A stretch of 64,000 nt of DNA from an uncultured bacterium (GCA_903870365.1 CAIQCQ010000034.1:2665-66664), one strand, 5' to 3'. Positions 2,123 through 38,115 are shown, numbered from the stretch's first letter. A program made the numbers and translations. The notes: a model not told the origin generated them from the letters alone.

Positions 2123-2185
2123 TGGATTCCGGATCCCTAGTAGTAGAGCAAAGCTCACTACGGGACAGGCAAGCTCGGAATGACG
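2123..2185 (+). repeat. REP-like unit with a long central hairpin
   Basis: CTGGATTCC...GCTCACTACGGGAC...GGAATGACG; paralog at 38055-38115. Confidence 0.7.
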
Positions 2186-2222
2186 AAAAAAATATTTTAT
2201 CTTTATGAATAAAGATCGGAAG

Positions 2223-2342
2223 CTTTCATAATTTCGCCAAGATCGCTTATAAAATTTAAAAAAGTGAGGAGGCGTACTTAGCAGTACGATGACGAGGATT
2301 TTTAAATTTTAGAAGATGAGATTGGTGAAATTTGGAAGTTTC
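2223..2342. repeat. Repeat-C copy 1
   Basis: See copy 2; it abuts the 3' end of the FKBP gene. Confidence 0.8.
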
Positions 2343-2345
2343 CAG

Positions 2346-2819
2346 CTATTTTTGGACACTTACAAGCTCAACTTGAAAAACCAATGTAGACCCTCCAGGA
2401 ATGGGGCCGTAGTCGGTTGGGCCATACCCCAACTCCGGCGGTACAGTCAATATACGTGTTCCACCCACCTTCATCCCAATCAAACCCTGATCCCATCCAG
2501 AAATTACTTTTCCTGCACCAAGCACAAAAGTAAATGGTACACCTCGAGCAATAGAACTATCAAATACTTTTCCATCTGTAAATGCACCGACATAATTGAC
2601 CGTAAGCGTCTCGCCCGGAGCAGCCACATCACCGGTACCAAGGACAGTATCCTGAACAACAACTTGTGGAGTGGTTGATGCTACGACGACAGTCTCACCG
2701 CCTGGCAACATACCTGTTCTAAAGATAGACACGAGTAATCCACCAAAGACAAAGAAAAAACCAACAACGACAATACCAACGACCACTGCTATTTTTTCAT
2801 TTCTATTCAAAGTTTTCAT
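2346..2819 (-). CDS. FKBP-type peptidyl-prolyl cis-trans isomerase, membrane-anchored
   Basis: FKBP domain (GETLTVNYVGAFTDGKVFDSS...GVPFTFVLGAGKVISGWDQGLIGMKVGGTRIL); N-terminal TM helix; start taken at the second Met (MKTLNR); ORF track extends to 2852. Confidence 0.8.
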   Translation of the reverse strand: MKTLNRNEKIAVVVGIVVVGFFFVFGGLLVSIFRTGMLPGGETVVVASTTPQVVVQDTVLGTGDVAAPGETLTVNYVGAFTDGKVFDSSIARGVPFTFVLGAGKVISGWDQGLIGMKVGGTRILTVPPELGYGPTDYGPIPGGSTLVFQVELVSVQK

Positions 2820-2834
2820 ATAAAATATTTTAAT

Positions 2835-2866
2835 TCTGGATTGAGGGCTCAAGCCCGGAATGACAG
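2835..2866 (+). repeat. REP-like unit (TCTGGATTG-AGGGCTCAAGCCC-GGAATGACAG)
   Basis: Same flanks, different hairpin. Confidence 0.6.
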
Positions 2867-3067
2867 AAAGGGTTGGTTAATACAAATGTTTTTCGAGAGC
2901 CTATTGACAATCCCATGTCTGAATCAAACTCCAAAATTTTGATCAAAAATCACACAATTCGAGGAAACATATCGAGATACGTTGACGAGAAGTGGACGAT
3001 TTGTAGCCGAAATTTTGGAATTTGAGCAGACAAGCATTAGCCTAAGTCTTGTAAGATGTGTTGAGAT

Positions 3068-3859
3068 TTGAATAGGCTCTCAGTAATTATATATGATATA
3101 GTACAAGACACAAGTAACAAAAAATATATGGATGAACACAATCTTAATGTACCTGGTAAAGATTTACCTGTCCGACCGCTGACAAAAGCCGAACTCCAAG
3201 AAACTGCACAGGAACGTGTGCACCTTATTTCAAAAGAATTTACCGAGGGATTTGAGTTTTTAGAGGATTATCCAAAATCTGTCACTTTTTTTGGTAGTGC
3301 TCGCAATGTAGAGGGTGATCCGATGTATGAAAAAGCAAGAAGTTTGGCAAAACGTATTACAACAGAACTCAAATACTCTATCGTTTCAGGTGGCGGTCCA
3401 GGTATCATGGAGGGTGCAAACCGCGGAGCCTTTGAAAATGCTGGTGAGTCTGTTGGTTTAACTATTGAATTGCCTGACAAAGGCCAAGCAACAAACCCAT
3501 ACATCAATAAAGGTGTTGATTTTTACTATTTCTTTGTTCGTAAAGTCTGTCTTGCATTTTCTGCCGAAGCCTATATCTTTTTCCCTGGTGGTTTTGGCAC
3601 CTTTGACGAAATGTTTGAGATCCTGACACTGGTGCAAACACACAAAATCGAACGTATACCCATTATCCTCGTTGGTAGTGAATTTTGGAGTGCGCTCGAC
3701 ACTCTGATGAAAAAAGAATTGCTTGGTCGAGGATTGATCGACCCAGAAGATACATCTCTCTATACTATTACAGACGACGAGAACGAGATCATAAATATTA
3801 TCAAAAACGCACCGGTCAGAAATGGCGAAGAGTTCAAAGGGCAAAAGTATGCGGGGTAA
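3068..3859 (+). CDS. LOG family protein (Rossmann-fold nucleotide-binding, TIGR00730-like)
   Basis: Motifs GGGPGIMEGANRGA and PGGFGTFDE; true start may be the Met at 3127. Confidence 0.75.
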   Translation: MNRLSVIIYDIVQDTSNKKYMDEHNLNVPGKDLPVRPLTKAELQETAQERVHLISKEFTEGFEFLEDYPKSVTFFGSARNVEGDPMYEKARSLAKRITTELKYSIVSGGGPGIMEGANRGAFENAGESVGLTIELPDKGQATNPYINKGVDFYYFFVRKVCLAFSAEAYIFFPGGFGTFDEMFEILTLVQTHKIERIPIILVGSEFWSALDTLMKKELLGRGLIDPEDTSLYTITDDENEIINIIKNAPVRNGEEFKGQKYAG

Positions 3860-3923
3860 TTTTGTACACATCTAATTGTGGTAAAAACTTTTTCTCTGGT
3901 ATCATTCTCCTGGAGATGATCTT

Positions 3924-4151
3924 TTGACTACACGCTACGCAGTAAACTACTGTTCACATGGTGAACACGAAAATGAGTTGGTAAGTTTCAAGGTTCGTAC
4001 TCTACTTGGCCGAACCACGAAAACTTGTCCAACCTGTCAGTATCGAAAACGAGAACGTCGTCGTGAACAAAAAAGAGCGCTTGTAGCTTCACTTATGCTC
4101 TTAATAACAACACTTGTCGCTTTCACACGACGAGTACTCGCAACCACGTAA
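3924..4151 (+). CDS. small hypothetical protein, zinc-ribbon-like (CxxH..CPTC) plus C-terminal TM
   Basis: 75-aa ORF with TTG start, followed by a strong terminator hairpin at 4158-4185. Confidence 0.25.
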   Translation: MTTRYAVNYCSHGEHENELVSFKVRTLLGRTTKTCPTCQYRKRERRREQKRALVASLMLLITTLVAFTRRVLATT

Positions 4152-4157
4152 CACAAA

Positions 4158-4185
4158 AGGAGACCTCCGGGTCTCCTTTGCTTTA
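4158..4185 (+). terminator. rho-independent terminator (GGAGACC-tccg-GGTCTCC followed by a T-run)
   Basis: Perfect 7-bp stem followed by TTTGCTTT. Confidence 0.6.
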
Positions 4186-4227
4186 TAATTACTTATGAAA
4201 ACCGTATATTTTCACTTCCCCTCTGTC

Positions 4228-4252
4228 TTTCCCGCGAAAGCGGGAATTCAGG
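4228..4252 (-). repeat. REP-like unit (GNRA-loop variant TTCCCGC-GAAA-GCGGGAA)
   Basis: Partner of the 4318 unit; BIME-like inverted pair. Confidence 0.7.
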
Positions 4253-4317
4253 ATCTTAATTTTAAATTTCGAATTTCTAATTTCGAAACAATGATTGAAT
4301 GTTTTAATTTTTGAAAC

Positions 4318-4346
4318 ACTGGATTCCCGTCTGCACGGGAATGACG
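4318..4346 (+). repeat. REP-like unit CTGGATTCC-CGTCTGCACGG-GAATGACGG (stem ATTCCCG / CGGGAAT)
   Basis: Identical copy at 35326-35355; inverted partner unit at 4228-4252. Confidence 0.8.
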
Positions 4347-4353
4347 GGGAGGG

Positions 4354-4575
4354 TTACTTATCCGCCAGCTCTTTTTTGATCTCAGTAAACTCATTCTCTA
4401 TCTCTTTGAGGCGTTCCTTTGAATCCTTTATCAACACTGCACCTTCTTTAATTAGTTCCAGACCCTTCTCGACATCAATCTCTTCTTGATTTTCAAACCA
4501 CGAAACAATTTTTCCCAACTGACTGAGTTTCTCACTGAGATCACCTTTATTTTCTTTGTGTGTTTCTTTTGTCAT
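4354..4575 (-). CDS. xseB: exodeoxyribonuclease VII small subunit
   Basis: 73-aa coiled-coil protein (EKLSQLGKIVSWFENQEE...LELIKEGAVLIK) immediately downstream of xseA. Confidence 0.8.
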   Translation of the reverse strand: MTKETHKENKGDLSEKLSQLGKIVSWFENQEEIDVEKGLELIKEGAVLIKDSKERLKEIENEFTEIKKELADK

Positions 4576-4673
4576 CCCGTTAAAGTTTTAATGAAATTTT
4601 TTAATAATTTAATAGTCTCTGTGATATGCAAATACGTCTACAATAACAATCCTATAGATACAACTCTCATGGG
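4576..4673 (-). mobile_element. MITE-like 98-nt element, copy 1 (TIR CCCGTTARAGTTTTA), inserted at the xseB start codon
   Basis: 15-bp terminal inverted repeats; flanked by direct repeat ATGA(T/C); one of 5 copies. Confidence 0.7.
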
Positions 4674-4674
4674 A

Positions 4675-6012
4675 TCATGTACGTTTCGCATCTATCGTAC
4701 CATCTGCGACCAAAATCTGAAAATCCTCCCCCTCCTTTACATCACTCACCGAACGAACAACCTTGCCACCAGCCCGTGTAATAGACCAGCCAAGCTTGAG
4801 CTGCCGTTCTGGTGAGCGAGCTTCTAGTATTTTTTCATAATTCTCAATCTTATTCTGTACTGTCGTAACCAGTCGGGACGCTGCGGTAAACATGAGCCTG
4901 GTGTCCCGCTCTATATCCACCGTATAGCGAGCAATACTATGAGCGATTCTTTCTTCTGCACGACTCATGTACTGAAAATAATAATTAAACTTTTCAAAAA
5001 TGAGTCGAAAACTTTTTTCCATAATTTGTTCACCTTCTTCAAGCAGATAGATGCTGTCTCGCAGTGCATGTTCAAACGTAGACAATATACTTTGTTCGGC
5101 CAGCCTGACTTGCGATACAGCCTCGCGAAAACCAGCCGACAAAAGATTTGCCACCGCAGTTGGGGTAGAAACATTTTTATCTGAGACCATTCCCACCAGT
5201 GAAATGTCTTTATCATGACCAATACCAGTCAGGACTGGTGCGGGAAACGTGGCCACCGCTCGGACAAGCATCTCATTGTTGAATGCTTGAAATGATTCGA
5301 GCGAACCACCTCCACGCATCATGACCAGGACATCAACTTTTTTTGTGGCGAGTGTTTTAACTGCAGCCAGCAAATCTTTGATCGCTGCATCGCCCTCCAC
5401 TTTTGAATCAACAAAAATAATTTCAAACCCACATTTACCAATATTAGACAAAAAGTCGTTTATAACTGCACCAGATTTGGAAGTAATGACACCGATAGTA
5501 TGTGGGAACTCTGGGATTGGTCGTTTACGAGCCTCATCAAATAAACCTTCGGCTGATAACTTGGCTTTTAATTTCTCATAGGCTATTTGTAATGCACCCT
5601 CACCCACCAGTTCAATACTTTCCACCTGCAGACTAATAGTACCGTTTGGTTTGTATATACTCGGGTAAGCCGTGACAATAACCTCGAGACCGTCCTGTAG
5701 ATCAACTCCTGAAAGACTAAAATCCCGTTTCCACATAAAACAATTCAAGGTACTCTGGTCTACTTTATCCTTAATAGAATAATACAAATAACTCCGACCT
5801 TCGTACATTTTGACACCAGTCACTTCACCAATGATGCGAGCTTTTTGAGATTTCAGATTTTTATTAACCGAGTCAACATATTCTGACACCGACACAATCT
5901 CCTGCCCTACGACTGTCGTAGGCAGTTTCGATGAGAGTGGTTTTTTCACACTCCGTGTGGAAATATCTTTCTCGTTCTGTATGTTATTTTCAATTTCATC
6001 AAATAAATTCAT
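4675..6012 (-). CDS. xseA: exodeoxyribonuclease VII large subunit
   Basis: 445 aa; N-terminal OB-fold; catalytic core motifs MMRGGGSLESFQAFNNE and GIGHDKD. Confidence 0.9.
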   Translation of the reverse strand: MNLFDEIENNIQNEKDISTRSVKKPLSSKLPTTVVGQEIVSVSEYVDSVNKNLKSQKARIIGEVTGVKMYEGRSYLYYSIKDKVDQSTLNCFMWKRDFSLSGVDLQDGLEVIVTAYPSIYKPNGTISLQVESIELVGEGALQIAYEKLKAKLSAEGLFDEARKRPIPEFPHTIGVITSKSGAVINDFLSNIGKCGFEIIFVDSKVEGDAAIKDLLAAVKTLATKKVDVLVMMRGGGSLESFQAFNNEMLVRAVATFPAPVLTGIGHDKDISLVGMVSDKNVSTPTAVANLLSAGFREAVSQVRLAEQSILSTFEHALRDSIYLLEEGEQIMEKSFRLIFEKFNYYFQYMSRAEERIAHSIARYTVDIERDTRLMFTAASRLVTTVQNKIENYEKILEARSPERQLKLGWSITRAGGKVVRSVSDVKEGEDFQILVADGTIDAKRT

Positions 6013-6102
6013 AATGAAATTATACTTTGAAACGGTAGTTCAAAATACTTGACTTTTTTGTATTAAGTGTGTTATTTTTCACCATAGGTAAGGAGACCCG
6101 AT

Positions 6103-6324
6103 ATGGAAGCACCATCAGAAAAATGGACCGAGGATGAAAGAAAAAGTGTTGTTTTAGCGGTTACAGAAATAATGCTCCAGAGCATAAGAGAACCTCAGCG
6201 ATCCATTGTGGGAGCATCGGAAGTGCAAGAATGGGCAGAAACAATAGATTTTGTTCTTACAAAAGATGCCCATTTTCTTCAGGTAAACCGGGGAAGAATT
6301 TTGAGAACAATTGGAATCAGATAA
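6103..6324 (+). CDS. hypothetical protein
   Basis: 73-aa ORF followed by a long hairpin plus T-run at 6326-6372. Confidence 0.3.
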   Translation: MEAPSEKWTEDERKSVVLAVTEIMLQSIREPQRSIVGASEVQEWAETIDFVLTKDAHFLQVNRGRILRTIGIR

Positions 6325-6393
6325 CCCCCGCCACGTCGTCACAAAAAGTCCGACGGGCGGGCTTTTTGTTTATACAGATTCTCCTTCTCGCGC

Positions 6394-6418
6394 CATTCCC
6401 GTGCAGACGGGAATCCAG
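6394..6418 (-). repeat. REP-like unit (CATTCCCGTGCAGACGGGAATCCAG)
   Basis: Same family. Confidence 0.8.
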
Positions 6419-6445
6419 TGTATCCAATCATACTTATTATTACAT

Positions 6446-6511
6446 CCTGGATCCCCGCCTTCGCGAGGATGACAAGAATGGGTGGATTCCAGGTCAAGAC
6501 GGGAATGACAG
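6446..6511 (+). repeat. two degenerate REP-like units
   Basis: CCTGGATCCCCGCCTTCGCGAGGATGAC and TGGATTCCAGGTCAAGACGGGAATGACAG. Confidence 0.6.
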
Positions 6512-6560
6512 AGAAGGAAAAGTTTCCACTTTCTAACTTGCACCTTTCAAAACTTTTAAA

Positions 6561-6941
6561 CTACTTCACTTCCAAATCAAGACACACACTATTCAAACAA
6601 TACCGTTTACCCGTTGGAGTTGGTCCATCAGTAAATACATGTCCTAAATGGCTCCTACACTTTGAACACGTGATTTCAGTCCGATGCATTCCCATTTCAT
6701 CATCACTTTTTTCTATGACACTTCCGGCAATTGCTTGGTCAAAACTCGGCCAACCAGTACCCGAATCAAACTTGGCGTCTGACATGAACAAGCCTTGTCC
6801 ACAAACCTTGCACTTATACATACCATCACGATCATCATGCAGTAGCTTGCCGCTAAATGGGGCTTCGGTCCCCTTTTCACGGAGAACTTTGTATTCTTCT
6901 GGTGTTAATTTTGCTTTTAACTCTTGTTCGTTTATGTCCAT
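6561..6941 (-). CDS. msrB: peptide methionine sulfoxide reductase MsrB
   Basis: SelR motifs CxxC...CxxC and [12 protein letters not shown]. Confidence 0.9.
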
Positions 6942-6947
6942 ATTGTA

Positions 6948-7484
6948 TTAGTTATTTTTTAGTAAATTTGCAAACTGTTTCTGTACCTTCTCCAACTTTG
7001 GATTGATAATCACCTGGCAATACGGAGCGTAGCTGTGATTAGAAAAATAATCTTTATGATAATCCTCTGCCGGGTAAAAGACAGTGAGCATCTCTACCTC
7101 GGTCACAATTGGCGCACCTTCTTTGGTACTATTGAGATCTGCAATAAATTGCTCCGCCTCAGTCTTTTGCTCTGCCGTCGCACAAAAGATAGACGATCGA
7201 TACTGTGGACCAATATCCGCACCCTGTCTGTTTTTAGTAGTCGGATCATGGCTACCAAAAAACACCGTCAACAAGTCATGCAGTTTGACTTGTTCTGGAT
7301 CATAGACGATAGAGACTGCTTCAGCATGACCGGTGTCCCCTGTACACACTTGCTCATATGTTGGGTTCGGTACGTGACCACCAGTATACCCAGGTGTCAC
7401 AGACTCGACACCTTTCAACATTTTAAAGATAGCCTCTGTGCACCAGAAACAGCCACCGCCAAAAACAATTTGTTGTTTATTCAT
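6948..7484 (-). CDS. msrA: peptide methionine sulfoxide reductase MsrA
   Basis: GGCFWC active-site motif near the N-terminus. Confidence 0.9.
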   Translation of the reverse strand: MNKQQIVFGGGCFWCTEAIFKMLKGVESVTPGYTGGHVPNPTYEQVCTGDTGHAEAVSIVYDPEQVKLHDLLTVFFGSHDPTTKNRQGADIGPQYRSSIFCATAEQKTEAEQFIADLNSTKEGAPIVTEVEMLTVFYPAEDYHKDYFSNHSYAPYCQVIINPKLEKVQKQFANLLKNN

Positions 7485-7521
7485 CCCTCTATTATATCAG
7501 ACGTGTCAAGCGATACTACTT

Positions 7522-7710
7522 AATTTCGAATTTTGAATTTTGAATTTCCAATTTTGACATTGTTTTTTACGAACACAGTGAGTTAGAACTACAAGAAGTA
7601 CCCTTGTGGTAGAAACAAATTAAAATTTCTGAATGATTGGAAACAGCATCTAATTCAAAATTAAATCATTGAAACATTGTTTCAAAATTGGAAATTCGAA
7701 ATTTTACTTT
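7522..7710. repeat. AT-rich intergenic palindromic block: ~40-bp imperfect inverted arms of (AATTTYGAA)-type repeats around a GAGTTAGAACTACAAGAAGTACCCTTGTGG hairpin
   Basis: Arms 7522-7566 vs 7667-7710; the central 30-mer recurs at 13921-13955. Confidence 0.6.
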
Positions 7711-8444
7711 GCCGGTACCAGCTTGCCAGCACACGTAGCACTCGCCCACAATCCAATTCCTCCCTCTCGGGCATATTTTTCTGTTGACCGAAATTCCGCT
7801 TGAAACTGATACGGTTTTTTATATGTGTACTCAAACCCATAGCCTTCTTGAATAATTTCTTCATCCACTAACACATCACCTAAATACACATACCGGAGCC
7901 AGCGACCATATTTATCAACATCATTTTGTGTTGGGTCTGTTTCTAGTCGCACAACGGTATCAGCTGGTAACATATGTTTGAGATATTCTGAGGCTTCTTT
8001 ACCAAAACACTGCACTGGTTTACGAGGATCAACTGTCTCCGGAGTATTCACCCCTATCAAACGGACCGTATGATCACCTCCAACATCACTATGGACGACA
8101 ACAGTATCGCCATCCACCACCCTGGTGACATAGTAACTATGCTCCGGCAATACCGTCTCCTGACTTTGTATGACCGCAGCACTTTGTTCACTCGTAAATG
8201 GTGTATGTGACGACGTATGTACTGCAACAATACTACAAATAAACACAAGGAGTGGGATCGCTATCATCAAAAAATATTTTTTATTCGAGAAATACCCCGT
8301 CAGCTTTGCTGCGGGGATTGGTATAACAGTATCGGCGGAGGCCGATTCTTCTTCAAACACAAAAGCCTGGTCCCGTCCCGCGGATACCTCGTCCCTTGTA
8401 GGGTGAGAATCAACGGGACGAGCTTTTTTATTTTGTCTCATCAT
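7704..8444 (-). CDS. thermonuclease (SNase / micrococcal-nuclease family), membrane-anchored
   Basis: VVDGDTVVVH...VRLIGVNTPE...YGRWLRYVY; the N-terminal 60 aa are encoded by Repeat-B, so the real start may be the Met at ~8265 (MIAIPLL). Confidence 0.75.
   Translation of the reverse strand: MMRQNKKARPVDSHPTRDEVSAGRDQAFVFEEESASADTVIPIPAAKLTGYFSNKKYFLMIAIPLLVFICSIVAVHTSSHTPFTSEQSAAVIQSQETVLPEHSYYVTRVVDGDTVVVHSDVGGDHTVRLIGVNTPETVDPRKPVQCFGKEASEYLKHMLPADTVVRLETDPTQNDVDKYGRWLRYVYLGDVLVDEEIIQEGYGFEYTYKKPYQFQAEFRSTEKYAREGGIGLWASATCAGKLVPAK
8272..8424 (-). repeat. Repeat-B copy 1
   Basis: See copy 2; it overlaps the annotated 5' end of the nuclease ORF. Confidence 0.8.
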
Positions 8445-8475
8445 AGCGTATAGTATAGCTTCTCAGAGCAGTTTT

Positions 8476-9060: not shown

Positions 9061-9078
9061 GCATTATTCACGTAATAT

Positions 9079-9498: not shown

Positions 9499-9507
9499 TA
9501 TATTTTT

Positions 9508-10020: not shown

Positions 10021-10047
10021 CACAACACACTAATATCACACATCACC

Positions 10048-16846: not shown

Positions 16847-17272
16847 TTAATTTTGTATATTCGTATTAACCTGTTCTTGAACCAAACTCATGTTTTGTTT
16901 TCCTTGTAACCAGATTGTATCAAGAGACCAATCATCTCTGCCATTCAAAAATATAGAGACTGCAGACAGTGCCAAACCAACATCACGCACTGCCACGTCC
17001 CCATACCCCACCGTATAGGCAATATCAAACAAATGAAGAGCAATGATCAGTGCTGTGTACCGAGTGGCTATACCTGCAATCAGAGCGGTGCCAACGACAA
17101 GTTCAAATGCACCATTGAGATATATAAGTACTGTTGGACTAAGGCCAAGCATAGTAGTCCATGTAGGGAGCAAAAACACCCACATCTCTGGATGCAATAT
17201 CTGTTCCACACCAAACCACAGCACAACTAAGGCAATACCGACTCGCACAACGACAGGGGCGTATTTTTTCAT
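16847..17272 (-). CDS. DoxX family membrane protein
   Basis: 141 aa, 4 TM helices, DoxX-like. Confidence 0.7.
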   Translation of the reverse strand: MKKYAPVVVRVGIALVVLWFGVEQILHPEMWVFLLPTWTTMLGLSPTVLIYLNGAFELVVGTALIAGIATRYTALIIALHLFDIAYTVGYGDVAVRDVGLALSAVSIFLNGRDDWSLDTIWLQGKQNMSLVQEQVNTNIQN

Positions 17273-17369
17273 CCCGTTAGAGTTTTAATAAGAATTTTTT
17301 AATAATTAAACAGTCTACAGAGTAAATATACCTGTACTATATTAACCCCTTAGATAAAACTCTAACGGG
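17273..17369 (-). mobile_element. MITE-like 98-nt element, copy 2, inserted at the doxX start codon
   Basis: TIR CCCGTTAGAGTTTTA / TAAAACTCTAACGGG; flanking direct repeat ATGA. Confidence 0.7.
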
Positions 17370-17429
17370 ATCATATGAATATATTATACGCAATATACGT
17401 ATGTAAGTACATTTTGTATGCACACACAT

Positions 17430-18314: not shown

Positions 18315-18353
18315 ATGAACGGAAATGCAAATTCCTATTGTTTAATTAGAAAA

Positions 18354-18508
18354 ACTTTCATAATTTGATTGAGATCGCGTATAAGGGCACACTTACTCAT
18401 TATGTATTCATAATGGGAAATTTTCGGAAGATTCGTAGACGTATTAGACATACGGCGGAGAATATTTTTTAGAATTTAGACGATGAGATCGGTCAAATTT
18501 GGAAGTTT
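18354..18508. repeat. Repeat-C copy 3 (divergent, with an insertion)
   Basis: Shares CTTTCATAATTT...CGATGAGATCGGTCAAATTTGGAAGTT with 2223-2342 and 38776-38895. Confidence 0.6.
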
Positions 18509-19226: not shown

Positions 19227-19850
19227 ATGCGGCCATTTCCCTATAAACAAGACTCTCGATTTGCCCTATTCAAAAAGCTCAATTCCCCTGCAAAAATACA
19301 GGATTTTCTCAATACCATCCCATTTAACTTTGAAACAAACGGCGACACCTGCAAATCCCCGCTTCGCACCCTTACAGAACACTCTGCCCAGTGCATGGAA
19401 GGTGCTATGCTTGCTGCTGCCATACTCTGGTACCACGGCGAGAGACCTTTGATCCTCGACCTTCGTACCAACAAACATGATTTTGATCATGTTGTCACTC
19501 TCTTTACACGCAATGGCCTGTGGGGTGCAATCAGCAAAACAAACCACGCCGTCCTCCGCTATCGTGATCCAGTCTATACCAGCGTACGTGAACTGGTCAT
19601 GTCATATTTTCATGAATACTTTACTGATGATGGTAAAAAAACGCTAGTGAGTTATTCTGCGCCATATAGTCTACTCTGTTTTAGTAATGACTGGCTGATC
19701 GCAGACGAAGACATCTGGTATATCCCCACTCAGCTCGATGATTCCAAACACATTCCCATCGCTCCACTATCAATTATGAAAAACCTCCGTCCCACTGACC
19801 AAGTCGAGAGAGAATATGGAAAGATTGTTGAATGGAAGAAAAAATCTTGA
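19227..19850 (+). CDS. hypothetical protein, possible transglutaminase-like Cys/His/Asp papain-fold
   Basis: 207 aa; SAQCMEGAMLAAAIL...DFDHVV arrangement. Confidence 0.3.
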   Translation: MRPFPYKQDSRFALFKKLNSPAKIQDFLNTIPFNFETNGDTCKSPLRTLTEHSAQCMEGAMLAAAILWYHGERPLILDLRTNKHDFDHVVTLFTRNGLWGAISKTNHAVLRYRDPVYTSVRELVMSYFHEYFTDDGKKTLVSYSAPYSLLCFSNDWLIADEDIWYIPTQLDDSKHIPIAPLSIMKNLRPTDQVEREYGKIVEWKKKS

Positions 19851-27684: not shown

Positions 27685-27733
27685 AAAGCTCTCCTTCCCT
27701 CTCTTTTATACCACACCACAAAAAATCAGTCTA

Positions 27734-28759: not shown

Positions 28760-28814
28760 GAGGATAGTTTAGCATACGAATATCCGAATTGGGAATTTCC
28801 GAATAGTTTTGAAT

Positions 28815-28967: not shown

Positions 28968-28979
28968 AATTTGATTAAA

Positions 28980-30961: not shown

Positions 30962-31090
30962 ATCCGTTAGAGTAACTTAATTCATCCAGTAAGTCTAACG
31001 TGTAAATTTCTACCTCAGGAGTACCTGATGTGTAAGTGTTCCCTTATAATTAACCTAATTACTAATTTCTAAAGGAGACCGTTTAAAGAA

Positions 31091-31441: not shown

Positions 31442-31477
31442 TTGAATTTTTAGAAATTAGAAATTAGAAATTTTTTC

Positions 31478-32335
31478 TCATCTCACTTTGTAATATACTT
31501 TATTACCGTATCGTAGATCAATATAATCGACAAGTAACTCTCCATCTTTTTCTGGCACAAGATTTGCTGTCTGTAACAACTTTTGCAGATTAGATGCCGT
31601 TTCAGCGAGTGGAGACTTGGCATCAAAAATAATATAGCCACCACCGTACAAATACATTTCAAAATCATCCTGTGTAGTCGCTACTATATATAGTGGGGTG
31701 ATATTGAGGGCCTTCACGGCTTCAACAAATTGCGACAATTGTCCAAAGGTATCTGATGATGACAAATATGATGAACCAATAGCTGATTCAAATGGCACCA
31801 ACCCATAATATTTAAAATAAGCATCACCAGAAAAGTCTGGGGCTTGAGAAAAAACAAAACCTGTCTTGTCGAGGAAATAACACTGTGGGGCTATAGTCGG
31901 GTCGGTACTCGAAGCAATTTGTTCCGGAGAGAGATTGCACCACAAAGCAGATGGTTGGCGTTCGGTCACAGTCACGCCGATAGTATGATAATTAACCAAA
32001 CTCACAGAGACAGTCTGTATGCGTGGAAATTGCTGTTGGAGAAAAATAGTCAGGCCTTTTCGTGGGTACAATAGCGCATTTTTCTTGCTCAAGACATATA
32101 TATAGTTACCCGAAATATACTGCGAGACAGACTGTTTAATTTGGTCAGGTGACAAGATGACTGTACCAGTCACCTGAACCATATCAATGGATACTTTTGA
32201 CCAGTGAGTTAGGCCAGCAAAGCCAGCAATGAGTATCACGAGTACCACACACCAGAAAGAAACATGTTGAATAAGACGCTTTTTCTTTTTCTCCAAATAA
32301 TCAGGGTTATGATACGTTTGTGATTTTTGAATCAT
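31478..32335 (-). CDS. putative cell division protein FtsQ/DivIB-like (TM plus POTRA-like)
   Basis: N-terminal TM and overall size/architecture; weak. Confidence 0.35.
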   Translation of the reverse strand: MIQKSQTYHNPDYLEKKKKRLIQHVSFWCVVLVILIAGFAGLTHWSKVSIDMVQVTGTVILSPDQIKQSVSQYISGNYIYVLSKKNALLYPRKGLTIFLQQQFPRIQTVSVSLVNYHTIGVTVTERQPSALWCNLSPEQIASSTDPTIAPQCYFLDKTGFVFSQAPDFSGDAYFKYYGLVPFESAIGSSYLSSSDTFGQLSQFVEAVKALNITPLYIVATTQDDFEMYLYGGGYIIFDAKSPLAETASNLQKLLQTANLVPEKDGELLVDYIDLRYGNKVYYKVR

Positions 32336-32433
32336 CCCGTTAGAGTTTTATTGAGGGTCTTCTAATAATCAAATAGTCTACGTGCCAAGAATATATCCAT
32401 ATCATAACAAACTATAGCTAAAACTCTAACGGG
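32336..32433 (-). mobile_element. MITE-like 98-nt element, copy 3, inserted at the start codon of the ftsQ-like gene
   Basis: Perfect 15-bp TIRs; 5-bp direct repeat ATGAT on both sides. Confidence 0.75.
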
Positions 32434-32507
32434 ATCATCTGCTTATTGTATCAAAAATCTCTACTTTCGTAGAGATTTTTGTACTTTCTTCTTCGTAATT
32501 CTTACTT

Positions 32508-33812
32508 CTAGTTTCTTTTTTCTATCTTTGTCTGTCCACCCATATATGGCACGAGCGCGTCAGGGATTTTGATTGAACCATCTGATTGCTGGTAGTTTTC
32601 CATAATCATGATCAGCGGTCGACCAGACAATGCAGTGTTGTTCAGAGAGTGTACAAATTTTAACTTTCCGTCATCATCTCGATAGCGAATATTCAATCGA
32701 CGTGTTTGGAAATCATGAAAATATGACGCTGAGCCAGTCTCTCTGTATGCATTCTCAGATGGCAACCAGACTTCGATATCATATTTTTTGACTTGGCCGA
32801 GACCAAGGTCACCACCACAATTGACCACCACGTGATATGGCAAACCAAGAGCTTCGGTAATCTCCTCAGTATTTCTCTGCACTTCTTCGTGATAGGTGAC
32901 TGACTCAGTATGTGAAGCTTCACACAAGACAACTTGTTCTAGTTTATAAAATTCATGCACACGCAAAATACCACGGGTATCCTTGCCATGACTACCTGCT
33001 TCACGCCGAAAGGCAGATGAAAACGACAGCATCTTTAATGGTAAATCTTTCTTATCCAAAATTTCATCCATATAATATCCCATGGTCGCTACCTCTGCAG
33101 TACCTGACAAATACTCACCGTCCTGTGTTTTATACAAATCATCTTCACCTTGTGGAATATAGCCAGTCCCGAGCAACAATTCGCGTTTTAACAAACTGGG
33201 CACAATCATTGGATTCCATTGTACTGTCCGTTCTGATCCTTCGGAAACGGTTGCACTTTTTTTATGAAAAAAATCTTGGACAAACTGCCACAATGCAAAC
33301 TCTAATCGAACAGCGTCACCTTTCAAAAAATAGCCACGAAAACCGGCAACCTTTGTACCACGTTCGAGGTCGAGCATTCCCAAGTTAGTCATCAACTCAA
33401 TATGATCCTTTGGCGTAAAATCAAATTTCGGAATCGTCCCCCATGTTTTGATTTCCATATTTTCACTATCGTCCACTCCATCTGGTACAGACATATCTGG
33501 TACGTTTGGCACAGCAATCATCAATGTCTGCCATTCTTTCATCACATCTTTCAATGTCTCTTCTTGTTTTTGTAGTGTTTCCTTGAGCAACTTCATCTCT
33601 TCGAGCAAGATACCCCGACGACTTTCGTCTGCTGTGGGGATCTCCTTACTGACCTCGTTTTGTCGGGCACGTGCAGTCTCCACACTGGCCATGAGCTCAC
33701 GGCGTTTGTCGTCTACTGCAATGAGGGCTTCGACGTCAAAATCAATGTGCTTTTTCTTGGCACCTAGGGCAACAATATCTTTGTTCTCGCGGATGAATTT
33801 AATGTCGAGCAT
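32508..33812 (-). CDS. serS: seryl-tRNA synthetase
   Basis: N-terminal coiled coil; class II motifs (FRREAGSHGKDTRGILRVHEF...GSASYFHDFQTRR). Confidence 0.9.
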   Translation of the reverse strand: MLDIKFIRENKDIVALGAKKKHIDFDVEALIAVDDKRRELMASVETARARQNEVSKEIPTADESRRGILLEEMKLLKETLQKQEETLKDVMKEWQTLMIAVPNVPDMSVPDGVDDSENMEIKTWGTIPKFDFTPKDHIELMTNLGMLDLERGTKVAGFRGYFLKGDAVRLEFALWQFVQDFFHKKSATVSEGSERTVQWNPMIVPSLLKRELLLGTGYIPQGEDDLYKTQDGEYLSGTAEVATMGYYMDEILDKKDLPLKMLSFSSAFRREAGSHGKDTRGILRVHEFYKLEQVVLCEASHTESVTYHEEVQRNTEEITEALGLPYHVVVNCGGDLGLGQVKKYDIEVWLPSENAYRETGSASYFHDFQTRRLNIRYRDDDGKLKFVHSLNNTALSGRPLIMIMENYQQSDGSIKIPDALVPYMGGQTKIEKRN

Positions 33813-33841
33813 TGTGTATGTATAGTAACAATAAAATTAAC

Positions 33842-33877
33842 AAAAGAAAATCGGCTAGCGTCCAAAGACAGCTAGCC
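33842..33877 (-). promoter_or_regulatory. terminator-type hairpin in the serS 5' leader (candidate attenuator / T-box-like leader)
   Basis: CGGCTAGC-loop-GCTAGCCG followed by ATTTTCTTTT on the minus strand, ~35 nt upstream of the serS ATG; no upstream co-directional gene. Confidence 0.4.
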
Positions 33878-34001
33878 GGAGGAGTTGGTCTCTTGAGCAA
33901 AGCTCATTGTAGGCGTCCCACAAACGCCTCGTTCTTCGGTCTCCATAGACCTACACCAAACGTTGCTCATATAGTAATAAAAGCTGTATTATTAGTCAAA
34001 C

Positions 34002-34889
34002 ATGATCGACAAGACTATTCGCACAGTCAAAACTACTGACTTTTCCCCACTCCTGGCAGAGATCTACCACTGTCCAGAAACTTTTCGCATGCAAGGCACT
34101 TTTCCAGTTGACGAAAATGGTGATGTGAAATACCTGACCGTCGTCGGCTCACGCAAATACAGCGACTACGGCAAAGCGGTCTGTGAATACCTTATTACTG
34201 GGTTGCGTGGATATCCTATCGTAGTCATCTCTGGCCTCGCACTTGGTATGGATGGTATTGCACTCCGTTCAGCACTGAACGCTGGTTTGAAAACCGTGGC
34301 TGTACCTGGATCAGGACTGTCTGACATGGCCATACACCCAAAAACAAACATTGGTATACGGGATGCAATATTGAACGCCGGTGGGTGCATCCTCTCAGAA
34401 TTCCCCGATGATTTTCGTGCGACACTCTACAGCTTTCCCCAACGCAATCGCATCATGGCGGGTCTGGCTCATGCCACACTGATCATCGAAGCAGAAATTA
34501 AATCAGGCACACTGATCACTTCAAAATACGCCACCGAATACAACCGCGATGTGTTTACCGTGCCACACCCCATTTTTTCGAGCACCTCCGAAGGTCCACA
34601 TATGCTCCTCCGTCTCGGCGCCACACCGATCACCAAGCCAGAAGATATTTTAGATGCCTTTGGTTTTGCGCCGCGCGAAGGATTGTTCGGCGGTAATAAT
34701 TCTTTGCGTGACTACAGTGACTGTTCCGAAGATGAACTGCTCGTGGTCAACCTCCTGACCCAGCCACTCGAGCGGGATACTATTATACGGGAGTTGGGCA
34801 AGCCAGTACATGTGACTCAGGCAATATTGTCGATCATGGAGATTAAGGGACTTATCAAGGAAGAGCTCGGCGAAATACGCCTCGTGTAA
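34002..34889 (+). CDS. dprA: DNA processing protein DprA (Smf)
   Basis: Rossmann DprA core (VVISGLALGMDGIALRSAL...). Confidence 0.85.
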   Translation: MIDKTIRTVKTTDFSPLLAEIYHCPETFRMQGTFPVDENGDVKYLTVVGSRKYSDYGKAVCEYLITGLRGYPIVVISGLALGMDGIALRSALNAGLKTVAVPGSGLSDMAIHPKTNIGIRDAILNAGGCILSEFPDDFRATLYSFPQRNRIMAGLAHATLIIEAEIKSGTLITSKYATEYNRDVFTVPHPIFSSTSEGPHMLLRLGATPITKPEDILDAFGFAPREGLFGGNNSLRDYSDCSEDELLVVNLLTQPLERDTIIRELGKPVHVTQAILSIMEIKGLIKEELGEIRLV

Positions 34890-34985
34890 TTACTAATTGA
34901 CCTAATTATTCTAATTTCTAAAGAATTTTGATATACTTGACATATCAATAAAAATACAATACATTATTCTCTAGGAGAAAACTTT

Positions 34986-35180
34986 GTGCAAACAATTGTA
35001 GTCAAACGACATCCAAACGGAAGGGTTAAGACAATCCATATGCAATCAGAAAACCCTGACGAACACACTACCCTTTCGGAAATTCACGTGCAGTTAGCAA
35101 ATCGTTGCTTCGGAGATCATCCCAGCATCAAGTCTACAGATTTTTCTCAGGGAAAAATCACACTTGAGATCGACGCTTGA
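34986..35180 (+). CDS. hypothetical small protein
   Basis: 64-aa ORF followed by a terminator hairpin at 35219-35250. Confidence 0.35.
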   Translation: MQTIVVKRHPNGRVKTIHMQSENPDEHTTLSEIHVQLANRCFGDHPSIKSTDFSQGKITLEIDA

Positions 35181-35270
35181 AAATACTTTGCCACTAATCA
35201 ATCCCGCCACCACGGCAACGGAAATCCGTTCGCTTCGGTGTGCGGATTTTTTGTATTAATTAATTTTTCT

Positions 35271-35298
35271 GTCATTCCCGCGAAAGCGGGGATCCAGG
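35271..35298 (-). repeat. REP-like unit (GTCATTCCCGCGAAAGCGGGGATCCAGG)
   Basis: Same family. Confidence 0.8.
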
Positions 35299-35325
35299 AT
35301 GTAAAGATGAATATGATTGGATACA

Positions 35326-35355
35326 CTGGATTCCCGTCTGCACGGGAATGACGGG
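35326..35355 (+). repeat. REP-like unit, identical to the 4318 copy
   Basis: Same family. Confidence 0.8.
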
Positions 35356-35461
35356 AAAAAATATTTAGAAATTAGAAATTAGTAATTAGGAATTTTTTAA
35401 ATAAAAAAATATCACTTATTTGCAAAAAGTTTAAAATACGGTAATACTAGACGAATATGAT

Positions 35462-35559
35462 CCCGTTAGAGTTTTTATACGACTCAGTACGGGCAAATAA
35501 CGTTTTTCATAAAATGAACAACTTGTAAGCACATACTTTAATCAAAAAACTCTAACGGG
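35462..35559 (+). mobile_element. MITE-like 98-nt element, copy 5 (divergent interior), inserted at the topA start codon
   Basis: TIR CCCGTTAGAGTTTTT...AAAAACTCTAACGGG; flanks ATGAT / ATGAA. Confidence 0.7.
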
Positions 35560-37818
35560 ATGAAAAAATTACTAATAGTAGAAAGTCCAGCCAAAGCCAA
35601 AACCATTTCAAAATATTTGAGTGGTGAAAAGGACACATACACCGTCGTCGCATCTGTCGGACACGTACGTGATCTTCCAAAGTCAAACAAAAAAGCCATC
35701 GATGTGGCTGCTGGTTTTGTGCCTCACTATGAAATTTCCAAAGGTAAAGAAAAAGTAATTGATGAGATATCTGCCCTGGCAAAAAAATCTGATGAAGTCC
35801 TGCTGGCGACCGACCCCGACCGTGAAGGTGAAGCCATCGCGTGGCATATCGCTGAGCTCTTGAAGAGCTCAGCGAAGTCAAAAGTCAAAAGTCAAAAGTC
35901 GAAAGAAAATACAGGACCAAAGATACAGAGAGTGACATATCATGAGATCACCAAAGAAGCCATCGAGGAAGCACTCAAACACCCTCGAGCCATTGACCAA
36001 AACTTGCGCAAAGCCCAAGAAGCTCGGCGTGTGCTCGACCGACTGGTGGGCTACGACCTCTCTGGTATCATTTGGAAAAAAGTGCGCTACGGTCTGTCTG
36101 CTGGCCGTGTCCAGTCCCCTGCGTTGCGTATCATCATGGAACGCGAGCGAGAAATACGTGCCTTCACCTCACACGCCTTTTGGGTCATTACTGCTGACGT
36201 GGCCAACAAAGACACATTCAAATTTGTCGTCACCTGCGAAGAAGAACCGACTGATCAGAAAAAAGTTGATGCCATCCTAGCCACAGGGAAAAAAGAAAAC
36301 TGGACCGTGACTGATATCAAAGCAACTGAAGTCAAGAAAACACCTCGTGCACCGTTTATCACTTCGACACTCCAGCAGACTGCATCGACACGACTTGGCT
36401 TTGCACCATCACGTACCATGGGTATTGCGCAAAAGTTATACGAAGCTGGACACATTACCTACATGCGTACTGATTCGACTACCCTTTCCAAAACTGCCCT
36501 TGCAGAAATCTCTACCGTCATCGAAAAAAAATTTGGTAAAGAATATCTCCAGCTCCATACTTTTACGACCAAATCAAAAAATGCACAGGAAGCTCATGAA
36601 GCCATCCGTCCAACACATGTGACACTGACAAGCGCCGGTAAAAATGATGATGAGAAAAAACTCTATGACTTGATCTGGGCTCGCACTGTGGCATCACAAA
36701 TGAAAGACGCAAATACACTGCGTACAAAAATTCTCGTCCAAGTTGGTGACGGCAAGATCAGTCCTGATTTTTCTGTTAACGGTTCACGAGTATTGTTTGA
36801 CGGCTGGATGGCCTCTGACCCGATGTCACGCACAGACGATATTGAAGTCCCAAAAGTCGAACTCAACGAGAAATTAAATTTTCATGATATCCATGCGCTC
36901 GAAAAGCAAACTGAACCACCGGGTCGCTACAGTGAAGCAGGTTTGATCAAAGAACTTGAAAAACGTGGCATTGGCCGACCGAGTACATATGCATCCATCC
37001 TCCGTACCATCGAAGAGCGTGGATATGTGGACAAGGTCAACAAAGCTCTGGTGCCGACAGACACTGGTGATGTAGTCTCGTCGTTCCTCGAAGACAACTT
37101 CGCTGACTACATTAGTGATACCTTTACTGCCGAAATGGAAGACAAGCTCGACCTCATTGCTGAGGGTAAACAAGAATACGAAAAAATCCTCAAAGATTTC
37201 TATACACCGTTTAGCAAAGAGGTAAAAATTAAAGACAAGCTCGACAAAGCCACCAACATGGGTGTAGCTGATCCAAAATTTACATGTCCGATCTGTGGCG
37301 AATCCATGATCATCAAACTTTCTCGTTCTGGGAAATTTCTTTCTTGTTCAACATACCCAGACTGTGATGGAGCACTCGATATGGAAGGTCGCGAGATCAA
37401 GAAAAATGAACCGATTGGTATTGATCCGACAACAGGTCTGCAGATTTTTATGATGGACGGTAAATATGGTCCATATGTTCAACTTGGCGAACGAGCAAAA
37501 GGTAAGGGTTCAAAGAAAGCGGTTAAACCACGCATGGCTGGCGTACCAAAAACAAAAGATCCAAACACCGTGACACTGACTGATGCCCTTCTCTACTTGT
37601 CATTACCAAAAGTCCTCGGTGTACACCCAGTCACTGGCCTGCCCATCACTGCCAACATTGGTATGTTTGGTCCATATGTCGTTCATGATAAAGATTTCAG
37701 ATCGCTCAAAGTGGATGATGTATATACGATCGAGCTTCCTCGGGCACTAGAAATCTTTGCCGAAGAAAAAAAAGTAGGACGACGTGGTCGATTTGCAAAA
37801 AAGAAGAAAGAAGAGTAA
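35560..37818 (+). CDS. topA: DNA topoisomerase I
   Basis: TOPRIM, catalytic Tyr region, C4 zinc ribbon CPICGESM; a hexanucleotide SSR at 35877-35900 encodes KSKVKSQKSK. Confidence 0.9.
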   Translation: MKKLLIVESPAKAKTISKYLSGEKDTYTVVASVGHVRDLPKSNKKAIDVAAGFVPHYEISKGKEKVIDEISALAKKSDEVLLATDPDREGEAIAWHIAELLKSSAKSKVKSQKSKENTGPKIQRVTYHEITKEAIEEALKHPRAIDQNLRKAQEARRVLDRLVGYDLSGIIWKKVRYGLSAGRVQSPALRIIMEREREIRAFTSHAFWVITADVANKDTFKFVVTCEEEPTDQKKVDAILATGKKENWTVTDIKATEVKKTPRAPFITSTLQQTASTRLGFAPSRTMGIAQKLYEAGHITYMRTDSTTLSKTALAEISTVIEKKFGKEYLQLHTFTTKSKNAQEAHEAIRPTHVTLTSAGKNDDEKKLYDLIWARTVASQMKDANTLRTKILVQVGDGKISPDFSVNGSRVLFDGWMASDPMSRTDDIEVPKVELNEKLNFHDIHALEKQTEPPGRYSEAGLIKELEKRGIGRPSTYASILRTIEERGYVDKVNKALVPTDTGDVVSSFLEDNFADYISDTFTAEMEDKLDLIAEGKQEYEKILKDFYTPFSKEVKIKDKLDKATNMGVADPKFTCPICGESMIIKLSRSGKFLSCSTYPDCDGALDMEGREIKKNEPIGIDPTTGLQIFMMDGKYGPYVQLGERAKGKGSKKAVKPRMAGVPKTKDPNTVTLTDALLYLSLPKVLGVHPVTGLPITANIGMFGPYVVHDKDFRSLKVDDVYTIELPRALEIFAEEKKVGRRGRFAKKKKEE

Positions 37819-37839
37819 ATTTTTTGCAGGAGGAATTTT

Positions 37840-37998
37840 ATGGCATGTCAAAGTTGCGGTGGAAATCAATTTGATAAAAATGGTAACTGTGTACGATGTC
37901 CACTTGGACCCATAGTTGGTCCAGGACTCCGAGCTGATCAGTGGGATATAGATGAATTTGTCCCTGACATCCGAGAACTCTTTGACGCAATAGACTAA
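37840..37998 (+). CDS. small zinc-ribbon protein (52 aa)
   Basis: Unlisted ORF MACQSCGGNQFDKNGNCVRCPLGP...; GGAGG SD 7 nt upstream; terminator at 38001-38038. Confidence 0.5.
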   Translation: MACQSCGGNQFDKNGNCVRCPLGPIVGPGLRADQWDIDEFVPDIRELFDAID

Positions 37999-38000
37999 CA

Positions 38001-38038
38001 AAAAGCCACGATGCAAATCGTGGCTTTGTATTTTTGTT
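38001..38038 (+). terminator. rho-independent terminator
   Basis: GCCACGAT-gcaaa-TCGTGGC followed by TTTGTATTTTT. Confidence 0.7.
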
Positions 38039-38054
38039 AATTTCTGAAACGGTT

Positions 38055-38115
38055 GATTCAGGATTCCTAGCAGCAGAGGAAAGCTCACTACGGGACAAGC
38101 AAAATTGGAATGAAA
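38055..38115 (+). repeat. REP-like unit with a long central hairpin
   Basis: Paralog of 2123-2185. Confidence 0.7.

Follow-up and report, generated by a model that had tools for sequence, protein, structure and literature searches.

Hairpin repeats in a Parcubacteria chromosome segment as probable Ssn-related motifs

The closest described counterparts of the repeats considered here are the NTS of Neisseria and the NTS-like "Ssn-related motifs" (SRM) found in many bacteria, which were characterized together with their partner enzyme, SsnA, by Chenal et al. (Nat Commun 2025; PMC11893778), a paper on whose main text our comparison rests. According to that work, the 20-bp neisserial repeat dRS3 (ATTCCC-N8-GGGAAT) is the palindromic core of the oriented 28-nt NTS, CGTCATTCCCGCGMAVGCGGGAATCYRG, and ssnA, a gene for a 94-aa single-domain GIY-YIG protein (cd10448), is spatially and phyletically linked to SRM: 71% of ssnA homologs have an SRM nearby and 81% of the genomes with more than 200 SRMs carry ssnA. 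The curated SRM set covers 29 genomes from four phyla, with counts taken from RefSeq representatives. SsnA binds the hairpin solely as single-stranded DNA (ssDNA), on one strand only, and introduces its nick a few nucleotides 5′ of the head sequence GTC; cutting depends on the three bases that precede the palindrome, and binding on the C that follows it. The published biochemistry concerns the Neisseria and Wolbachia homologs, and Ssn modulates natural transformation in Neisseria. Here, we analyze a family of hairpin repeats in a 64,000-nt stretch of DNA from an uncultured bacterium (GCA_903870365.1, CAIQCQ010000034.1:2665-66664; hereafter, the window), which belongs to the Parcubacteria, and find that these repeats are most probably SRMs.

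Family membership of the hairpin units

By direct reading of six regions and a tolerant pattern scan, we located 11 oriented hairpin units, nine short (27-30 nt) and two long (56-64 nt), all of them intergenic and distributed over seven sites in 64 kb, with none inside a gene. Coordinates are positions in the whole window, and signs denote the strand in the published orientation, GTCATTCC-hairpin-GGAATCCAG. In the orientation of the literature, the anatomy of a unit is (Y)GTC-ATTCC...hairpin...GGAAT-CCAG, and the form CGTCATTCCCG-loop-CGGGAATCCAG corresponds to the NTS definition except for the stem-closing pair and the loop. The window units share with the NTS/SRM repeats the GTC head, the ATTCC-stem hairpin and the C-YRG tail, as well as an extragenic, multi-copy and gene-flanking placement; moreover, the same repeats flank ssnA in related Parcubacteria. 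They differ in that the host is a metagenome-assembled genome of the candidate phyla radiation (CPR) with no ssnA within the 64 kb, that in the dominant variant the closing pair is T-A and the loop GCAG/TGCAGA, in place of GCGMAVGC, and that two units are long variants with an additional internal hairpin. Judged from these features, the units are in all likelihood SRM/NTS repeats, that is, oriented recognition sites with Ssn as the partner enzyme. The repeat family and the Ssn system have been known since 2025, and what is new here is the Parcubacteria example.

A sequence-only reading of this DNA had remarked on the resemblance of the central hairpin to dRS3, and this resemblance falls into place given that dRS3 is the core of NTS and that SRMs occur in many bacteria. 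The core palindrome is exact in three units and, as in the neisserial intergenic mosaic elements (NIMEs), the repeats bracket short intergenic spacers. However, dRS3 is unoriented and 20 bp long, whereas the window units carry oriented 28-nt NTS-type flanks; unlike for NIMEs, the host is not Neisseria, and no RS-type spacers, DNA uptake sequences or Correia elements were seen in the window. The evidence supports homology, not coincidence, as the source of the dRS3 resemblance. A full-text literature search with the sequence strings and "dRS3" yielded the Ssn paper (PMC11893778) as the sole relevant match.

Chance is excluded as the origin of the repeats. The palindrome ATTCCCG-N6-CGGGAAT, with up to two mismatches, has five matches in the window against 0.14 expected, and the dRS3 core ATTCCC-N8-GGGAAT has three exact matches and two with one mismatch. 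The published SRM pattern, HGTCWYN(0-2)YYVSBRHN(0-5)WNVSBRGN(0-2)RNCYNB, matches exactly four times (4319-4346, 6447-6474, 35270-35297 and 35326-35353), compared to 0.15 expected from first-order Markov controls; the 9-mer CTGGATTCC by itself, with one mismatch allowed, is not significant (17 matches vs 12 expected). A covariance model built from 41 distinct 28-mers, which the SRM pattern had picked out in the window and in loci of many phyla, was run over the 64 kb with filters off and retrieved six units with E < 2e-6 and three weaker ones, with no other match. Across the 41 sequences, 97.6% of the stem cells are paired, a percentage inflated by the use of the SRM pattern in gathering them; sliding the partner lowers the paired share to 55% or less. 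Five of the eight stem pairs have changed on both sides. Neither the GTC head nor the C that follows the palindrome varies in this alignment, and both correspond to positions critical for cleavage or binding in PMC11893778. Among the 11 window units, the GTC head is present in nine (the unit at 6391 has GCC and that at 38059 has TTC) and the C in ten (4224-4251 has T). The six canonical units fold, with DNA parameters, into ssDNA hairpins of -6.3 to -8.3 kcal/mol, and for the decayed units at 6482, 2836 and 38059, shuffled sequence folds at least as well.

The ten units named in the sequence-only reading are all present within a few bases of the positions given there (the last starts at 38059 rather than 38055), as are the GAAA-loop and TCTGCA-loop variants that it described, and its count of at least ten is extended by an eleventh unit, at 51058-51086, beyond the range it covered. 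The six canonical units are the arms of three doublets. In the first of these, the left arm (4224-4251, +; GAAA loop, TGTCTTTCCCGCGAAAGCGGGAATTCAG; covariance model 34.5 bits, E = 1.2e-6; ssDNA fold -8.3 kcal/mol) lies 45 nt past an intrinsic terminator at 4156-4179 and has a T in place of the C directly after the palindrome, the position reported as critical for binding (PMC11893778). An AT-rich spacer of 67 nt (4252-4318), holding a copy of a GAATTTYGAAAC-type motif found again at 1945-1986 and 7531-7572, leads to the right arm (4319-4346, -; CGTCATTCCCGTGCAGACGGGAATCCAG), a canonical TGCAGA-loop SRM located 8 nt beyond the xseB stop codon, which matches the published pattern exactly, scores 46.5 bits (E = 9e-10) and folds at -7.6 kcal/mol (z = -4.2). 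The left arm of the second doublet (6391-6418, +; TGCAGA loop; 37.9 bits, E = 1.5e-7) follows, by ~23 nt, a terminator-like hairpin with a T-tract recognized by direct reading at ~6330-6370; its head is GCC where the family has GTC, and the published mutagenesis (PMC11893778) predicts that such a unit would be bound by Ssn without being cleaved. Its spacer (6419-6446, 28 nt) is homologous, in inverted orientation, to that of the third doublet, and the right arm (6447-6474, -; GCGAAGGC loop, TGTCATCCTCGCGAAGGCGGGGATCCAG) is an exact match to the SRM pattern and the best match of the covariance model (47.3 bits, E = 6e-10). Beside this doublet lies a decayed unit, GTCATTCCCGTCTTGACCTGGAATCCAC (6482-6510, -; 18.5 bits, E = 0.017). 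The third doublet is located between a 64-aa open reading frame (ORF) downstream of dprA and topA, and consists of a GAAA-loop left arm (35270-35297, +; exact SRM pattern; 42.8 bits) 22 nt past an intrinsic terminator at 35228-35247, a 28-nt spacer (35298-35325) and a canonical TGCAGA-loop right arm (35326-35353, -), also an exact pattern match. The latter is identical to 4319-4346 over 28 nt, and the arm 6391-6418 has the 24-nt core of both, ATTCCCGTGCAGACGGGAATCCAG.

The five solitary units are all on the minus (G-rich) strand. Besides the decayed unit adjoining the second doublet, these include two long variants. That at 2122-2185 (64 nt, -), located 25 nt before a start codon on the minus strand (2097), has the head CGTCATTCC and the tail GGAATCCAG around an internal hairpin plus GAGCTTGCCTGT, and folds as ssDNA at -10.5 kcal/mol (z = -3.2). 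The other (38059-38114, -), 31 nt past a bidirectional terminator (38002-38027) downstream of topA, is decayed, with the head TTC, the tail CCTG and no stable fold, and the two are 85% identical (2125-2183 vs 38055-38113). The remaining solitary units are the decayed short unit GTCATTCCGGGCTTGAGCCCTCAATCCAG (2836-2865, -; 14.7 bits, E = 0.17; weak fold), 17 nt upstream of the start codon (2819) of an FKBP-type isomerase gene, and GTCATTCCGGATTTGACCCGGAATCTAC (51058-51086, -; 14.8 bits, E = 0.16; ssDNA fold -7.1 kcal/mol, z = -2.9), which lies between two tandem minus-strand genes and resembles the units flanking ssnA in the Parcubacteria locus L120. The strand bias was considered as a signature of ssDNA transposition and dropped: SRM orientation is unrelated to local GC skew in 97 loci of other genomes (44 vs 52, p = 0.42).

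The units also create spurious ORFs (4295-4489, +; 6418-6951, +; 35198-35326, -; 35238-35351, +). The stereotyped peptides that result, LDSRLHGNDG, WIPAFARMT or WIPAFAGMT, and VIPAKAGIQ, offer a quick marker of SRMs in hypothetical proteins.

Doublet geometry, linkage to ssnA and spread across lineages

The three inverted pairs perceived in the sequence-only reading are real: the window holds three tail-to-tail inverted doublets (4224-4346, 6391-6474 and 35270-35353) with spacers of 67, 28 and 28 nt, respectively. The third is an inverted copy of the second, spacer included (6385-6478 vs 35267-35359, 88% identity over 94 nt); therefore, the doublet, and not the single hairpin, was the copied unit. 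The same geometry prevails in other genomes, where orientation and loop types were sampled on roughly 250 loci. Adjacent SRMs in all fetched loci are arranged tail-to-tail in 37 cases, head-to-head in five and in the same orientation in four; similarly, 51 of 119 exact 27-mers have a tail-to-tail partner within 140 nt, compared to 7 of 121 with a head-to-head partner. The two arms tend to carry different loops, with 45 of the 51 tail-to-tail partners showing the other, GCCTTCGC-like type, and all three window doublets obey this heterotypic rule, each combining a TGCAGA-loop arm with a GCGAARGC-loop arm. The rule is not stated in the main text of PMC11893778. Long variants, in which an extra internal hairpin is followed by an ACAAGC-type segment, are found both in the window (2122 and 38059) and in three Nitrospirota loci (L017, L060 and L094).

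In seven Nitrospirota loci (L017, L023, L046, L051, L060, L086 and L094) and two loci of the uncultured bacterium CAZVKN01 (L041 and L055), the SRM doublet is nested in a larger palindrome with outer inverted repeats of 13-14 nt (CTCGTAAAAAGTC...GACTTTTTACGAG; CTTTGAAATATTCA...TGAATATTTCAAAG); therefore, the repeated unit there is longer than the doublet.

Homologs of Ssn are abundant (7,899 matches at E <= 1e-5), and many of them are named as Patescibacteria or Parcubacteria. Three other Parcubacteria contigs (L119, L120 and L121/L122) have a GIY-YIG gene of 95-97 aa with the same repeats on its flanks; these repeats lie 4-105 nt from ssnA in the pattern scan and 4-26 nt from the aligned ORF region with the covariance model. 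An SRM doublet is found 4 nt past the ssnA stop codon in L119; L121/L122 have a doublet upstream of ssnA and units downstream; and L120 (JACPLK010000019.1) has two units upstream and six downstream. In the Hatepunaea locus L043, an exact copy of the 27-mer follows ssnA at a distance of 31 nt. For 19 Ssn ORFs, the closest SRM upstream shares the strand of the gene in eight cases and lies opposite in four, and the closest SRM downstream lies opposite in ten and shares the strand in two. Eight loci are full SRM-ssnA-SRM tail-to-tail cassettes, in which the units typically lie 16-26 nt from the ORF (81 and 53 nt in L258). This is the geometry of the gene-less doublets of the window and of adjacent SRM pairs. 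As to annotation resources, NCBIfam has no model specific to Ssn, PADLOC includes no system for it, and a sequence comparison found no relative in the PDB.

The ssnA neighborhood of L119 (9221-12793), namely znuABC, DUF6390, ssnA, small ORFs and DUF3326, is shared by L121 (4987-8823) and L122 (3121-6957). L119 and L121/L122 come from two different assemblies, and L121 and L122 encode the same SsnA protein. Because of this common neighborhood, ssnA of the L119 and L121/L122 lineage appears to be a chromosomal gene passed on stably, and not a hopping element. Two further genes of L120, neither of them SRM-flanked, are a Y1_Tnp gene (PF01797; 12720-13433), 2.4 kb from the SRM-flanked ssnA, and a second, shorter GIY-YIG gene (16878-17135), 6.6 kb away.

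The exact 27-mer CTGGATTCCCGTCTGCACGGGAATGAC, which is the 27-nt core of unit 4319-4346, occurs in at least 115 stretches of other genomes from ~15 or more phylum-level lineages, including two cultured strains. Hosts among the matches listed comprise Planctomycetota, Vampirovibrio, Gamma- and Betaproteobacteria, Desulfobacterota, Chloroflexota, Nitrospirota, Balneolaceae, Cyanobacteria, Myxococcota, Bdellovibrionales, Zixibacteria, Hatepunaea, Xenobia, Hydrogenedentes and several CPR groups. A degenerate SRM core is present in at least 120 viral contigs of IMG/VR, in six of which ssnA is adjacent. The breadth of the 27-mer, the tail-to-tail preference, the likeness of cassettes and doublets, the viral copies and the long variants are absent from the main text of PMC11893778.

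Chromosomal setting and other repeats of the window

The window is genuine chromosomal DNA of Parcubacteria (CPR). It encodes clpB, topA, a short infB, murC, serS, tgt, xseA/xseB, msrA/msrB, dprA, dnaX, dus and eight tRNAs, and the nearest named homologs of its SerS (72-78% identity) are all assigned to Patescibacteria, Parcubacteria, Paceibacterota or Minisyncoccia. At least three separate assemblies (ENA samples ERZ18668134 and ERZ27313605; Logan run ERR4194716) contain contigs that match the window at 100% across the repeat sites. Because of these CPR housekeeping genes and identical contigs, a chimera with Neisseria DNA, against which the flanking genes were checked, is ruled out; the impression gained from the sequence alone that these genes are not Neisseria-like was correct, and they are of Parcubacteria type. 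A short contig of the same population (L117, from Logan run ERR4194716) ends at window position 35216, 54 nt before the doublet at 35270, and the repeats may contribute to such assembly breaks.

Three segments have a repeat-gene-repeat arrangement. The units of 2122-2865 bracket the gene of a membrane FKBP-type isomerase (FKBP read from the translation); those of 4224-6510 bracket the xseB-xseA operon, encoding the ssDNA exonuclease VII, and a divergent 73-aa ORF (6103-6324); and those of 35270-38114 bracket topA and a 52-aa ORF, with dprA just upstream. The bracketing of ssDNA-handling genes (xseBA, and topA next to dprA) is suggestive and may be due to chance; it is reminiscent of the reported effect of NTS-gene-NTS arrangements on transformation in Neisseria. 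Seven metagenomic relatives of xseA (50-66% identity; L125-L131) have no SRM nearby, and differ too much in synteny for an empty insertion site to be recognized.

Several other repeats accompany the hairpin family. A repeat of ~124 nt with a small CGTACT...AGTACG hairpin occurs in three direct copies (2219-2340, 18352-18507 and 38774-38895; 67-88% identity), which abut the 3′ ends of minus-strand genes (FKBP-type, a 169-aa ORF and parB-like, respectively); the first copy has no Rfam match. A palindromic element of ~118 nt, with 17-nt inverted ends (ATCCCGTTAGAGTTTTA / TAAAACTCTAACGGGAT) and an AT-rich core, is present at 4573-4691, 17270-17387, 32333-32451 and 50146-50266, with partial copies at 19316-19339 and 35459-35482. 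The element ends in the ATG that starts the minus-strand gene downstream (xseB, DoxX, FtsQ-like and a trypsin-like protease), and it could be a promoter/leader module or a miniature inverted-repeat transposable element. A third repeat, of 65-70 nt and containing GTCGACAATCTGGTG / CACCAGATTGGCGAC, forms two oppositely oriented pairs with ~80% identity within each (40618-40682, 44544-44608, 55040-55109 and 63457-63526), and three of the four copies adjoin tRNA genes (tRNA-Leu at 40744, tRNA-Trp at 44634 and tRNA-Leu/Lys at 54896-55280). AT-rich intergenic motifs of the GAATTTTGAATTTTGAAAC and TTAGAAATTAGAAATT types (1945-1986, 4260-4301 and 7531-7572; 31445-31472 and 35360-35387), which may be promoter or UP-like elements, include one copy within the spacer of the 4224-4346 doublet and one just past the 35270-35353 doublet. 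Finally, the region 54000-62000, where GC content drops to 0.35-0.37, contains a large serine recombinase gene (56180-57820, -) overlapping the 3′ end of tRNA-Leu (56115-56201), followed by ORFs without Pfam matches, and a LOOT RNA (Rfam RF03000, 90 bits; 59197-59316, -); it is probably an integrated mobile element or prophage.

Alternative explanations and biological implications

Several observations weigh against assigning the repeats to a working Ssn system. The ssnA gene is absent from the window: a hidden Markov model of 106 real Ssn homologs, compared with the six-frame translation, gave a best E value of 8.8, a GIY-YIG regular expression and tblastn with a consensus-like seed found no Ssn-like ORF over the window, and no GIY-YIG or Y1 gene is annotated in the ~4.5 kb of the source contig past the window end. 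A cognate nuclease is thus unproven for this genome, over a search covering the window and those ~4.5 kb. The 28-mers behind the covariation count had been selected with the SRM pattern. Three or four of the 11 units are decayed, and two otherwise good units are altered at critical positions (the T tail of 4224-4251 and the GCC head of 6391-6418). Furthermore, 19% of SRM-rich genomes are without detectable ssnA (PMC11893778). The missing gene, the decayed and altered units and this percentage would also fit SRMs that are relics, in a genome that lost or never had a functional ssnA, tolerated between genes as inert or decaying leftovers of a past invasion or horizontal transfer. We nevertheless regard relics as unlikely, because six units are still near-perfect (E < 2e-6), 4319-4346 and 35326-35353 remain identical with the same core persisting in 6391-6418, and ssnA is common and syntenically stable in other Parcubacteria. 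The absence of the gene from the window also weighs little, given that 64 kb is less than 10% of a typical CPR genome.

The sequence-only reading had assigned the units to a REP/BIME-like family (repetitive extragenic palindromes and bacterial interspersed mosaic elements). The part of this assignment that stands is the description of dispersed extragenic hairpin repeats in REP/BIME-like inverted doublets; the RAYT type does not. A classical REP/BIME (REPIN) system moved by a RAYT, that is, an IS200/IS605-like Y1 HUH transposase, encoded elsewhere in the genome would account for extragenic palindromes in inverted doublets, with the doublet apparently being the duplicated unit, and L120 has a Y1_Tnp gene 2.4 kb from its SRM cluster. 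The parallel goes further in that a single-copy enzyme gene is flanked by its own repeats and the hairpin is recognized in ssDNA. However, this L120 gene, the only Y1_Tnp seen, has no flanking units, and the window, as already noted from the sequence alone, has no RAYT/IS200-type transposase (phmmer with the L120 Y1 protein against the six-frame translation; Pfam/NCBIfam on 30 ORFs). REPs served by RAYTs reportedly carry a GTAG-type tetranucleotide, whereas the conserved head here is GTC. We know of no counterpart in Ssn, a GIY-YIG nickase rather than a Y1 HUH enzyme, of the RAYT transposition chemistry, with its covalent 5′-phosphotyrosine and strand transfer. The partner statistically and biochemically linked to the family is Ssn, in place of the cognate Y1 transposase that had been expected, and ssnA is SRM-flanked in other Parcubacteria, so that RAYT-driven movement is very improbable. 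IS200/IS605 elements and their gene-less derivatives, the palindrome-associated transposable elements (PATEs), are comparable in their subterminal hairpins, recognized in ssDNA and cleaved a short distance away, in the existence of miniatures with just two end hairpins, and in left and right ends that differ, like the two loop types of a doublet. Unlike in these elements, where both hairpins act on the same strand, the arms of SRM doublets are inverted, with cleavable sites on opposite strands, and no TnpA or TnpB accompanies the doublets here. Equally hard to sustain is a role at the RNA level, as terminators, mRNA 3′-end stabilizers or attenuators. The hairpins are stable, genes or terminators end shortly before four of the seven sites, and two units precede start codons by 17-25 nt. 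Yet the suggested association with Rho-independent termination did not materialize: no unit has a T-tract or was called terminator-like, the four sites lie ~22-45 nt past a separate canonical terminator or terminator-like hairpin, and intrinsic termination by the units themselves was rejected, the canonical terminators (4156-4179, 35228-35247 and 38002-38027) standing apart. In addition, the units occur in both orientations relative to neighboring genes, Rfam gives no match with the gathering score as cutoff or with E up to 1, SsnA shows no binding to the RNA form (PMC11893778), and a pure hairpin function would leave the fixed non-palindromic head and tail unexplained. The least credible possibility is that the units serve chiefly for attachment or targeting by IS110/Piv-family recombinases or filamentous phages. 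Such use is documented for dRS3, which in Neisseria is targeted by a phage recombinase (work cited in PMC11893778), and the SRM core is found in the viral contigs mentioned above; however, the window has no IS110-type gene, no unit is interrupted by an insertion, and the sole recombinase (the serine recombinase, 56180-57820) sits at tRNA-Leu, not at an SRM. Targeting would, moreover, be a secondary exploitation that leaves the spread of the family unexplained.

If the units are indeed SRMs recognized by Ssn, the system could work as follows. Upon exposure of single-stranded DNA, an SRM would extrude a short hairpin, with an 8-bp stem on ATTCC/GGAAT, a loop of 4-6 nt, a 5′ GTC head and a 3′ C-CAG tail. 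This oriented hairpin would be recognized by a cognate SsnA, a single-domain GIY-YIG nuclease of ~95 aa presumably encoded elsewhere in the genome, which, by analogy with the biochemistry in the literature, would bind the ssDNA form of one strand and nick it a few nucleotides 5′ of the GTC head. Because Ssn recognition is strand-specific, a tail-to-tail doublet would offer one cleavable site whichever strand is single-stranded, with the cut positions just outside the doublet. Parcubacteria, which are CPR bacteria of ultra-small size, presumably rely on taking up DNA, and in such a cell, with DprA and probable uptake, the system may restrict or process ssDNA, either incoming or at replication and repair.

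The analysis shows that the units belong to the SRM family, can form hairpins and lie outside genes, that copying involved the whole doublet, and that the repeats are linked to ssnA in other Parcubacteria. More tentatively, the gene-less doublets might be miniature derivatives of SRM-ssnA-SRM cassettes that spread as units, in which case they would be non-autonomous members of a new class of mobile elements driven by a GIY-YIG ssDNA nickase and crossing phyla, including CPR, partly on phages. To our knowledge, Ssn-driven mobility has never been demonstrated, and a GIY-YIG nickase alone leaves reinsertion unexplained; this idea is possible rather than likely. If true, it would explain the presence of an identical 27-mer in ~15 or more phylum-level lineages.

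For annotation, the hairpins should be labeled as SRM/NTS, and not as REPs, terminators or small spurious ORFs, and the enzyme to be sought with them is a ~95-aa GIY-YIG nuclease rather than a RAYT. The case extends the Ssn/SRM system to Parcubacteria, and the tail-to-tail preference, the heterotypic arms and the geometry shared with ssnA cassettes would, if they hold genome-wide, provide a concrete handle on how SRMs multiply.

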